DNA from: Escherichia coli
Lineage (GTDB): Bacteria; Pseudomonadota; Gammaproteobacteria; Enterobacterales; Enterobacteriaceae
Direction: 5' to 3' (one strand)
Length of the DNA: 64,000 nt
Assembly: GCF_048403405.1 (NCBI RefSeq)
Contig: NZ_CP183129.1
Within the stretch, counting starts at the first letter, position 1. Each line of letters begins with the position of its first letter. Positions 17,585-18,061 of this stretch are shown here, piece by piece. The notes below the pieces were generated by a model. The model was given only the letters and a program-made list of their open reading frames with translations. It did not search any database and was not told the origin of the DNA. Both the position numbers and the translations under genes were made by a program.

Positions 17585-18061
17585 ATGATATTATTTGTTG
17601 GATTTTTGTTGATGGAAATTGTTATGCCTCAGATTAGCCGGACCGCACTGGTACCCTACAGCGCGGAGCAAATGTATCAGTTAGTGAATGACGTTCAGTC
17701 TTATCCTCAGTTTTTGCCGGGTTGTACCGGAAGTCGGATTCTGGAGTCCACTCCTGGGCAGATGACTGCGGCGGTAGATGTCTCTAAGGCTGGGATCAGC
17801 AAAACGTTTACTACCCGCAACCAGTTGACCAGTAACCAAAGTATTCTTATGAATCTGGTGGATGGGCCGTTCAAGAAATTGATCGGTGGATGGAAGTTTA
17901 CGCCGCTGAGCCAGGAGGCGTGTCGTATCGAGTTTCATCTCGATTTTGAGTTTACCAATAAGTTGATTGAACTCGCCTTTGGTCGCGTGTTTAAAGAGCT
18001 GGCGGCTAATATGGTCCAGGCTTTTACGGTTCGTGCGAAAGAGGTTTACAGTGCCAGGTAA
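17585..18061 (+). CDS. ratA: ribosome association toxin RatA (PasT/YfjG), SRPBCC-fold
   Basis: 158-aa ORF containing [34 protein letters not shown]...; start could also be the internal MPQIS. Confidence 0.8.

Follow-up and report, generated by a model that had tools for sequence, protein, structure and literature searches.

Where translation of ratB begins is the question raised by this locus, and with it comes a second one, namely what the overlap between ratB and the preceding gene, ratA, stands for. In the window, by which we mean the whole 64,000-nucleotide stretch of Escherichia coli DNA that was analysed, a mechanical list of open reading frames (ORFs) gives the longest ORF in the ratB frame as 17967..18341, opened by a TTG and encoding 124 aa. 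A sequence-only reading of this stretch had instead placed the ratB start at GTG 18051, eight nucleotides ahead of the ratA TAA at 18059-18061, and had noted that the six-frame ORF reaches back to 17967 within ratA. Both positional statements are borne out by the letters. The features that matter for the question are the following:

17624..18061, plus strand: ratA (pasT/yfjG) coding sequence, START-domain/Coq10-like, 145 aa (PGAP, PF03364, NF007999)
17967..18050, plus strand: upstream in-frame extension of ratB with TTG 17967, TTG 17979 and GTG 18033 (weak Shine-Dalgarno sequences, codon loss, frame-specific variability)
18038..18044, plus strand: ratB Shine-Dalgarno sequence AAAGAGG (anti-Shine-Dalgarno duplex energy, codon conservation)
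18051..18341, plus strand: ratB/yfjF/pasI coding sequence, RnfH-family ubiquitin-like, 96 aa (PF03658, NF002490, PDB relatives)
18051..18053, plus strand: ratB GTG start codon (annotated start in RefSeq and K-12; conservation)
18051..18061, plus strand: ratA-ratB overlap of 11 nt (sequence, RefSeq and K-12 annotation)
18059..18061, plus strand: ratA stop codon TAA (sequence, ORF list)
18349..18377, no strand assigned: GC-rich hairpin with A-run and T-run flanks (terminator-like site, found on the minus strand by pattern scan)

According to the sequence and the ORF list, GTG 18051 begins 8 nt ahead of the first base of the ratA stop, and the two ORFs share 11 nt with the bases GTGCCAGGTAA. It is the frames that overlap; the ratB GTG codon itself makes no contact with the ratA TAA. 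In the ratA frame the junction reads ...GCG AAA GAG GTT TAC AGT GCC AGG TAA, and in the ratB frame, which is shifted by +1, it reads ...GCGAAAGAGGTTTACA GTG CCA GGT AAA ATT GCC... Translation from GTG 18051 yields a protein of 96 aa that begins with MPGKIAVEV.

The surrounding region (17400-18500) has the order smpB(-), ratA(+), ratB=yfjF(+), bamE(-) and recN(-). The stretch 17560-18400 is found at 95% identity or more in 5425 of 5426 complete E. coli genomes; the identity lies between 95 and 99% in 4966 of the 5426 matching records and reaches 100% in several, strain CE0007a being one that is identical throughout. Downstream of smpB lies ssrA (tmRNA, tag ANDENYALAA; window 16394-16756, minus strand). 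In a strain with identical ratAB DNA (locus L001, 1-1697), the gene directly after ssrA is ypjA, which encodes an autotransporter, where K-12 (L002) carries the CP4-57 prophage with intA; from this arrangement, the L001 strain appears to lack CP4-57 at the ssrA attachment site.

The start at GTG 18051 is not new. RefSeq/PGAP annotates yfjF as "RnfH family protein" (WP_001117840.1) in a strain with identical DNA, corresponding to window 18051-18341, and the K-12 MG1655 record b2618 (NP_417108.4) has the same 291-nt coding sequence from this GTG with the same 11-nt overlap with ratA. The window ratB therefore agrees with K-12 yfjF/ratB and with its PGAP equivalents in register, length and overlap, and its protein is identical to the PGAP product of the strain with 100% identical DNA; although the window derives from a non-K-12 E. 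coli strain, nothing of substance differs in ratB. The literature uses the same codon: pasI was cloned with its "original SC (GTG)" by means of the primer ...GTGCCAGGTAAAATTGCC (Fino et al. 2020, PMC7424257), and the start of the ratB ORF has been described explicitly as overlapping the end of ratA (2026 preprint 10.64898/2026.05.04.722385). Since RefSeq, the K-12 record and the literature already employ this GTG, our finding restates accepted annotation, and the overlap is of an ordinary kind. Neither an initiation peak nor an N-terminal peptide was found for yfjF/ratB/b2618 in the ribosome-profiling and N-terminomics supplements that we searched (Meydan Ribo-RET preprint, TRAINSPOTTER, INRI-seq, Salmonella riboproteogenomics, Giess 2017). 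The TetRP table of new sites, which covers sites within 60 nt only, lists yfjG/ratA and lacks yfjF (PMC4909307), and a full-text literature search combining yfjF with start-codon terms returned nothing relevant.

The DNA itself offers further evidence on the start. The sequence AAAGAGG ends 6 nt ahead of the GTG (spacer TTTACA) and is embedded in the ratA codons for Lys-Glu-Val. Its predicted duplex with the anti-Shine-Dalgarno sequence gives the GTG at 18051 an energy of -7.0 kcal/mol, placing it near the 5th percentile of all positions in the window. The remaining in-frame candidates reach -2.2 kcal/mol (TTG 17967), -0.9 kcal/mol (TTG 17979), -3.2 kcal/mol (GTG 18033) and -3.9 kcal/mol (GTG 18075), and GTG 18051 alone among them has a good Shine-Dalgarno sequence.

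Conservation across species provides a second line of evidence. Out of 80 species-level loci that were fetched, 64, mostly from Enterobacterales, have a ratA that ends in the same register. The ratB start is GTG in 63 of these and ATG in one. The distance from GTG to the ratA stop is 5 nt in 37 loci, 8 nt in 24 and 14 nt in two, which corresponds to overlaps of 8, 11 or 17 nt within Enterobacterales. In 17 of the 64 loci, this GTG is the sole ATG, GTG or TTG in the open frame 5' of the conserved IxVEV strand. The distances sort by lineage: Escherichia, Citrobacter and Enterobacter-like genera have the GTG 8 nt ahead of the stop, with an 11-nt overlap and a protein beginning MPGK; in Yersinia, Serratia, Pantoea, Erwinia, Photorhabdus and others it lies 5 nt ahead (GTGNCTGA, 8-nt overlap, M-S/P-D-I...); and Citrobacter youngae and C. 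werkmanii place it 14 nt ahead and encode a 98-aa protein.

As the start codon and its Shine-Dalgarno sequence both lie within ratA, their conservation can be compared with what the ratA protein demands. Within the GTG codon, the T at +1 and the G at +2 are invariant in all 64 loci and the G at position 0 is kept in 63. The ratA residue encoded across this site varies (Ser, AGT, in 39 loci; Arg, CGT, in 22; others in 3), and despite this change of residue all 64 loci have T as the third base of the ratA codon (NGT) lying across the start. The Shine-Dalgarno sequence shows the same restraint. Of its ratA codons, the one for Glu is GAG in 60 loci with a single GAA, against a ratio of 232:219 elsewhere in the same ratA genes, and the one for Lys is AAA in 47 loci with a single AAG, against 260:196 in the background. 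Randomisation is complete at neighbouring third positions of ratA, one of these, for example, being G in 23, C in 20, A in 13 and T in 8 loci. These locus counts are not independent of each other, as the species are phylogenetically related, yet the saturated flanking sites show that changes had plenty of time to accumulate. Conservation of the GTG and of the upstream Shine-Dalgarno sequence was the check proposed with the sequence-only reading, and both are kept at ratA-synonymous sites across the 64 species-level loci, which places the arrangement beyond chance. Thus, the position of the ratB start is held in place independently of the coding needs of ratA.

The same alignment speaks to the reading in which RatB would be made from TTG 17967 or TTG 17979, as a protein of 120-124 aa whose N-terminal extension is read from the +1 frame of ratA. 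The frame is indeed open from 17967 in this genome and in close relatives, and TTG is a permitted start codon. However, both TTG codons have a weak or absent Shine-Dalgarno sequence, only 13 of 64 loci have TTG at the codon corresponding to 17967 and 24 have a stop codon there, and the extension frame stays open throughout in 26 loci and is interrupted in 38. Moreover, substitutions 5' of the GTG follow the ratA frame only, with no coding constraint in the ratB frame. Column analysis upstream of the GTG was anchored on the GTG, as anchoring on the ratA stop is blurred by a 3-nt difference in register between two clades. Between -84 and -19 from the GTG, the entropy is 1.32 at ratA position 3 compared with 0.54 and 0.41 for the remaining two; 3' of the ratA stop it is 1.51 at ratB position 3 compared with 0.57 and 0.45. 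Variability 5' of the GTG therefore peaks at position 2 of the ratB frame, a pattern that cannot be reconciled with a coding role for that frame.

Family membership sets a further boundary on the N-terminus. RatB matches PF03658 (Ub-RnfH) with 120.4 bits (cut-off 23.7) over profile positions 1-83 of 83, and NCBIfam NF002490 with 154.7 bits (cut-off 75) over positions 3-95 of 96. Its relatives in the PDB, as judged by sequence, include 2hj1_A from H. influenzae (E = 7.3e-28) and chain H of the Azotobacter Rnf complex, the RnfH protein 8ahx_H (E = 2.8e-13). By these full-length profile matches above the curated cut-offs, RatB is a member of the RnfH family on the basis of its sequence; unlike the RnfH of the rnf operon, ratB neighbours a START/Coq10-like gene. 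The PF03658 match begins at residue 5 of the 96-aa protein (residue 33 of the 124-aa ORF), position 3 of NF002490 falls on residue 4, and residue 3 of Azotobacter RnfH aligns to Val7 of RatB. The upstream extension thus lies outside every family profile (PF03658 and NF002490). The N-terminus of the RatB query is aligned by 139 representatives at 50% identity, of which 122 have their own N-terminus within -4 to +7 residues of the GTG start, with a mode of 0, and the rare long N-terminal extensions of RatB homologues are unrelated to one another.

RatB homologues of 106-163 aa were considered as possible support for an upstream start and rejected, as they stem from frameshifts that fuse them to ratA or from read-through, not from initiation at TTG. 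The database 'RatB' entries P0004, P0015, P0018 and P0021, for instance, are RatA-RatB fusions or read-throughs that arise from single-base assembly indels; such long entries reflect errors of sequencing or assembly and not alternative starts. Taken together, no part of RatB is translated from the 84-nt extension to TTG 17967, a chance stop-free stretch of the +1-shifted ratA, and production of the long protein is extremely improbable. The earlier suspicion that the start at 17967 is probably not used is hence supported by annotation, Shine-Dalgarno strength, conservation, frame-specific substitutions and profile boundaries alike.

Two other GTG codons close to the annotated start deserve the same scrutiny, one at 18033, six codons upstream, and one at 18075, eight codons downstream. 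Both are in frame, and a GTG at +24 is found in many species. GTG 18033 is nevertheless present in only 17 of 64 loci, as its middle base coincides with a third position of ratA that varies freely, and a start at 18075 would remove I5-E8, which is conserved (IxVEV) in distant homologues and belongs to the Pfam domain. With the duplex energies given above also counting against both codons, we consider initiation at either of them very improbable. As the best explanation of these data as a whole, we hold with high confidence that translation of ratB begins at GTG 18051, with the AAAGAGG inside the last ratA codons directing initiation.

We then asked what the overlap might mean for translation of the pair. 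In all 64 loci, ratA and ratB lie on the same strand and ratB starts 5-14 nt before the ratA stop. The arrangement extends to more distant lineages: Alteromonas and Aggregatibacter have ATGGNTGA with an 8-nt overlap, one Alteromonas has GTGA, and in three metagenome relatives (47-57% identity) the START-domain gene and the Ub-RnfH gene, which starts with ATG, share 14, 4 and 8 nt. As the overlap is conserved at 4-17 nt and distant lineages are included, translational coupling of the two genes, which the sequence-only reading had taken from the overlap, is plausible. Same-strand operon pairs that overlap and are translationally coupled include trpE-trpD and trpB-trpA. The ratA-ratB pair resembles them in its shared strand, in a downstream start just before the upstream stop, in the embedded Shine-Dalgarno sequence and in the conserved overlap; it differs in having an 11-nt overlap with GTG, where the commonest forms are the 4-nt ATGA or a 1-nt overlap.

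In our reading, ratA and ratB form a bicistronic operon with frames overlapping by 11 nt. A ribosome completing ratA at TAA 18059 terminates 8 nt past the point where ratB starts, and synthesis of RatB would probably be coupled in part to translation of ratA, by re-initiation or by local delivery of ribosomes, with de novo initiation driven by the Shine-Dalgarno sequence at the ratB GTG taking place alongside. Because the ratB site carries a strong Shine-Dalgarno sequence of its own, coupling is something that we infer, and we regard it as somewhat favoured.

The other way to understand the overlap is as genome compaction only, in which case ratB would be initiated independently through its own Shine-Dalgarno sequence and there would be no functional coupling. 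This sequence is both strong and conserved, as set out above. Overlap length varies (4, 8, 11, 14 and 17 nt), suggesting that no specific geometry is required. In at least one species, Acerihabitans arboris (L065, ~1350-1500), the genes lie ~150 nt apart: the ratA homologue ends ~148 nt 5' of the ratB core, with no overlap and no GTG at the usual place. Local RNA structure is in line with independent initiation as well. A hairpin that would mask the ratB Shine-Dalgarno sequence and GTG was sought by folding 120 nt, and the z-score of -0.30 is not significant. As there is no significant local RNA structure, the classical unmasking mechanism of coupling is not supported.

Against compaction alone stands the fact that the overlap is kept from Enterobacterales to relatives at ~50% identity. 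Reported abundances point in the same direction: as far as they are quoted in PMC7424257 from Schmidt et al. 2015, the copies per cell are similar, with ~30 for RatA and ~50 for RatB. Furthermore, deletion of ratA has been reported, as 'data not shown', to lower ratB strongly, by a log2FC of -6.75 (preprint 10.64898/2026.05.04.722385), although this drop could be a transcriptional polar effect. Weighing these points, we consider compaction without coupling possible though rather doubtful, and partial coupling of ratB translation to that of ratA the better account of the conserved overlap.

Transcription of the pair was considered in the same region. Inside ratA, a scan for promoters gave no sigma-70-like site on the plus strand from which ratB could be transcribed separately, which is a weak negative. 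Between the convergent genes ratB and bamE lies the perfect hairpin at 18349-18377, which is palindromic (AAAAAAGGTGCTCATTGAGCACCTTTTTT). It is probably a shared bidirectional intrinsic terminator that would also end the ratAB transcript, its use on the plus strand being suggested by the palindrome.

No ratA homologue was detected directly upstream of ratB in loci from Rodentibacter, Haemophilus, Aggregatibacter segnis and Pasteurella (tblastn, 1e-5; L071, L074-L078, L080 and L082). In these Pasteurellaceae, ratB has an ATG start and is preceded by a short intergenic region with its own stop nearby. Lower similarity or a different gene neighbourhood may explain these cases.

The start of ratA has a more troubled history than that of ratB. 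It differs by source, being ATG 17624 in PGAP (145 aa, MPQISRT...) and ATG 17585 in the K-12 record and in the ORF list (158 aa). The matches of PF03364 and NF007999 to the short RatA cover 1-144 of 144. Likewise, the TetRP table reports a new yfjG/ratA start 39 nt downstream of the old annotation (PMC4909307), and it has been shown that only the Met14 form of RatA is made, the long form causing an artefactual 'toxin' phenotype (PMC11988751). The ratA start was thus mis-annotated for years, with misleading consequences. As a two-gene overlapping operon, the pair resembles a type II toxin-antitoxin system, its historical label being RatAB or PasTI, and databases still name RatA a type II toxin. 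This assignment is now refuted in the literature: the toxicity stems from the mis-annotated long RatA, deletion of ratB is viable, and RatA is a Coq10 homologue that is described as a Coq10-like ubiquinone chaperone, with no RatA-RatB complex obtained (PMC11988751, PMC7424257, 10.64898/2026.05.04.722385). In addition, the antitoxin-first order, which is typical but not obligatory, is absent here, as ratA, the supposed toxin, precedes ratB.

For ratB, a naive longest-ORF reading over-extends the gene by 28 codons and the database start is right. The Shine-Dalgarno sequence and GTG frozen at ratA-synonymous sites constitute an independent validation of this start from sequence only, which is useful because RatB resists detection by tagging, the tagged protein having been undetectable (preprint 10.64898/2026.05.04.722385), and because no published N-terminal mapping was found. 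In itself, the position of the ratB start matters little beyond annotation hygiene. Two bolder readings of the junction, that the fixed overlap forces the Coq10-like ubiquinone carrier RatA and the ubiquitin-like RatB to be made in stoichiometric amounts, and that a minor long RatB isoform arises from an upstream TTG in Escherichia only, are unlikely when taken jointly. If enforced co-production were true, RatB would act with RatA in the handling of ubiquinone, as its obligate partner or regulator, across beta- and gammaproteobacteria. That the overlap has been conserved adds a further hint at a functional link between RatB and the Coq10-like RatA.
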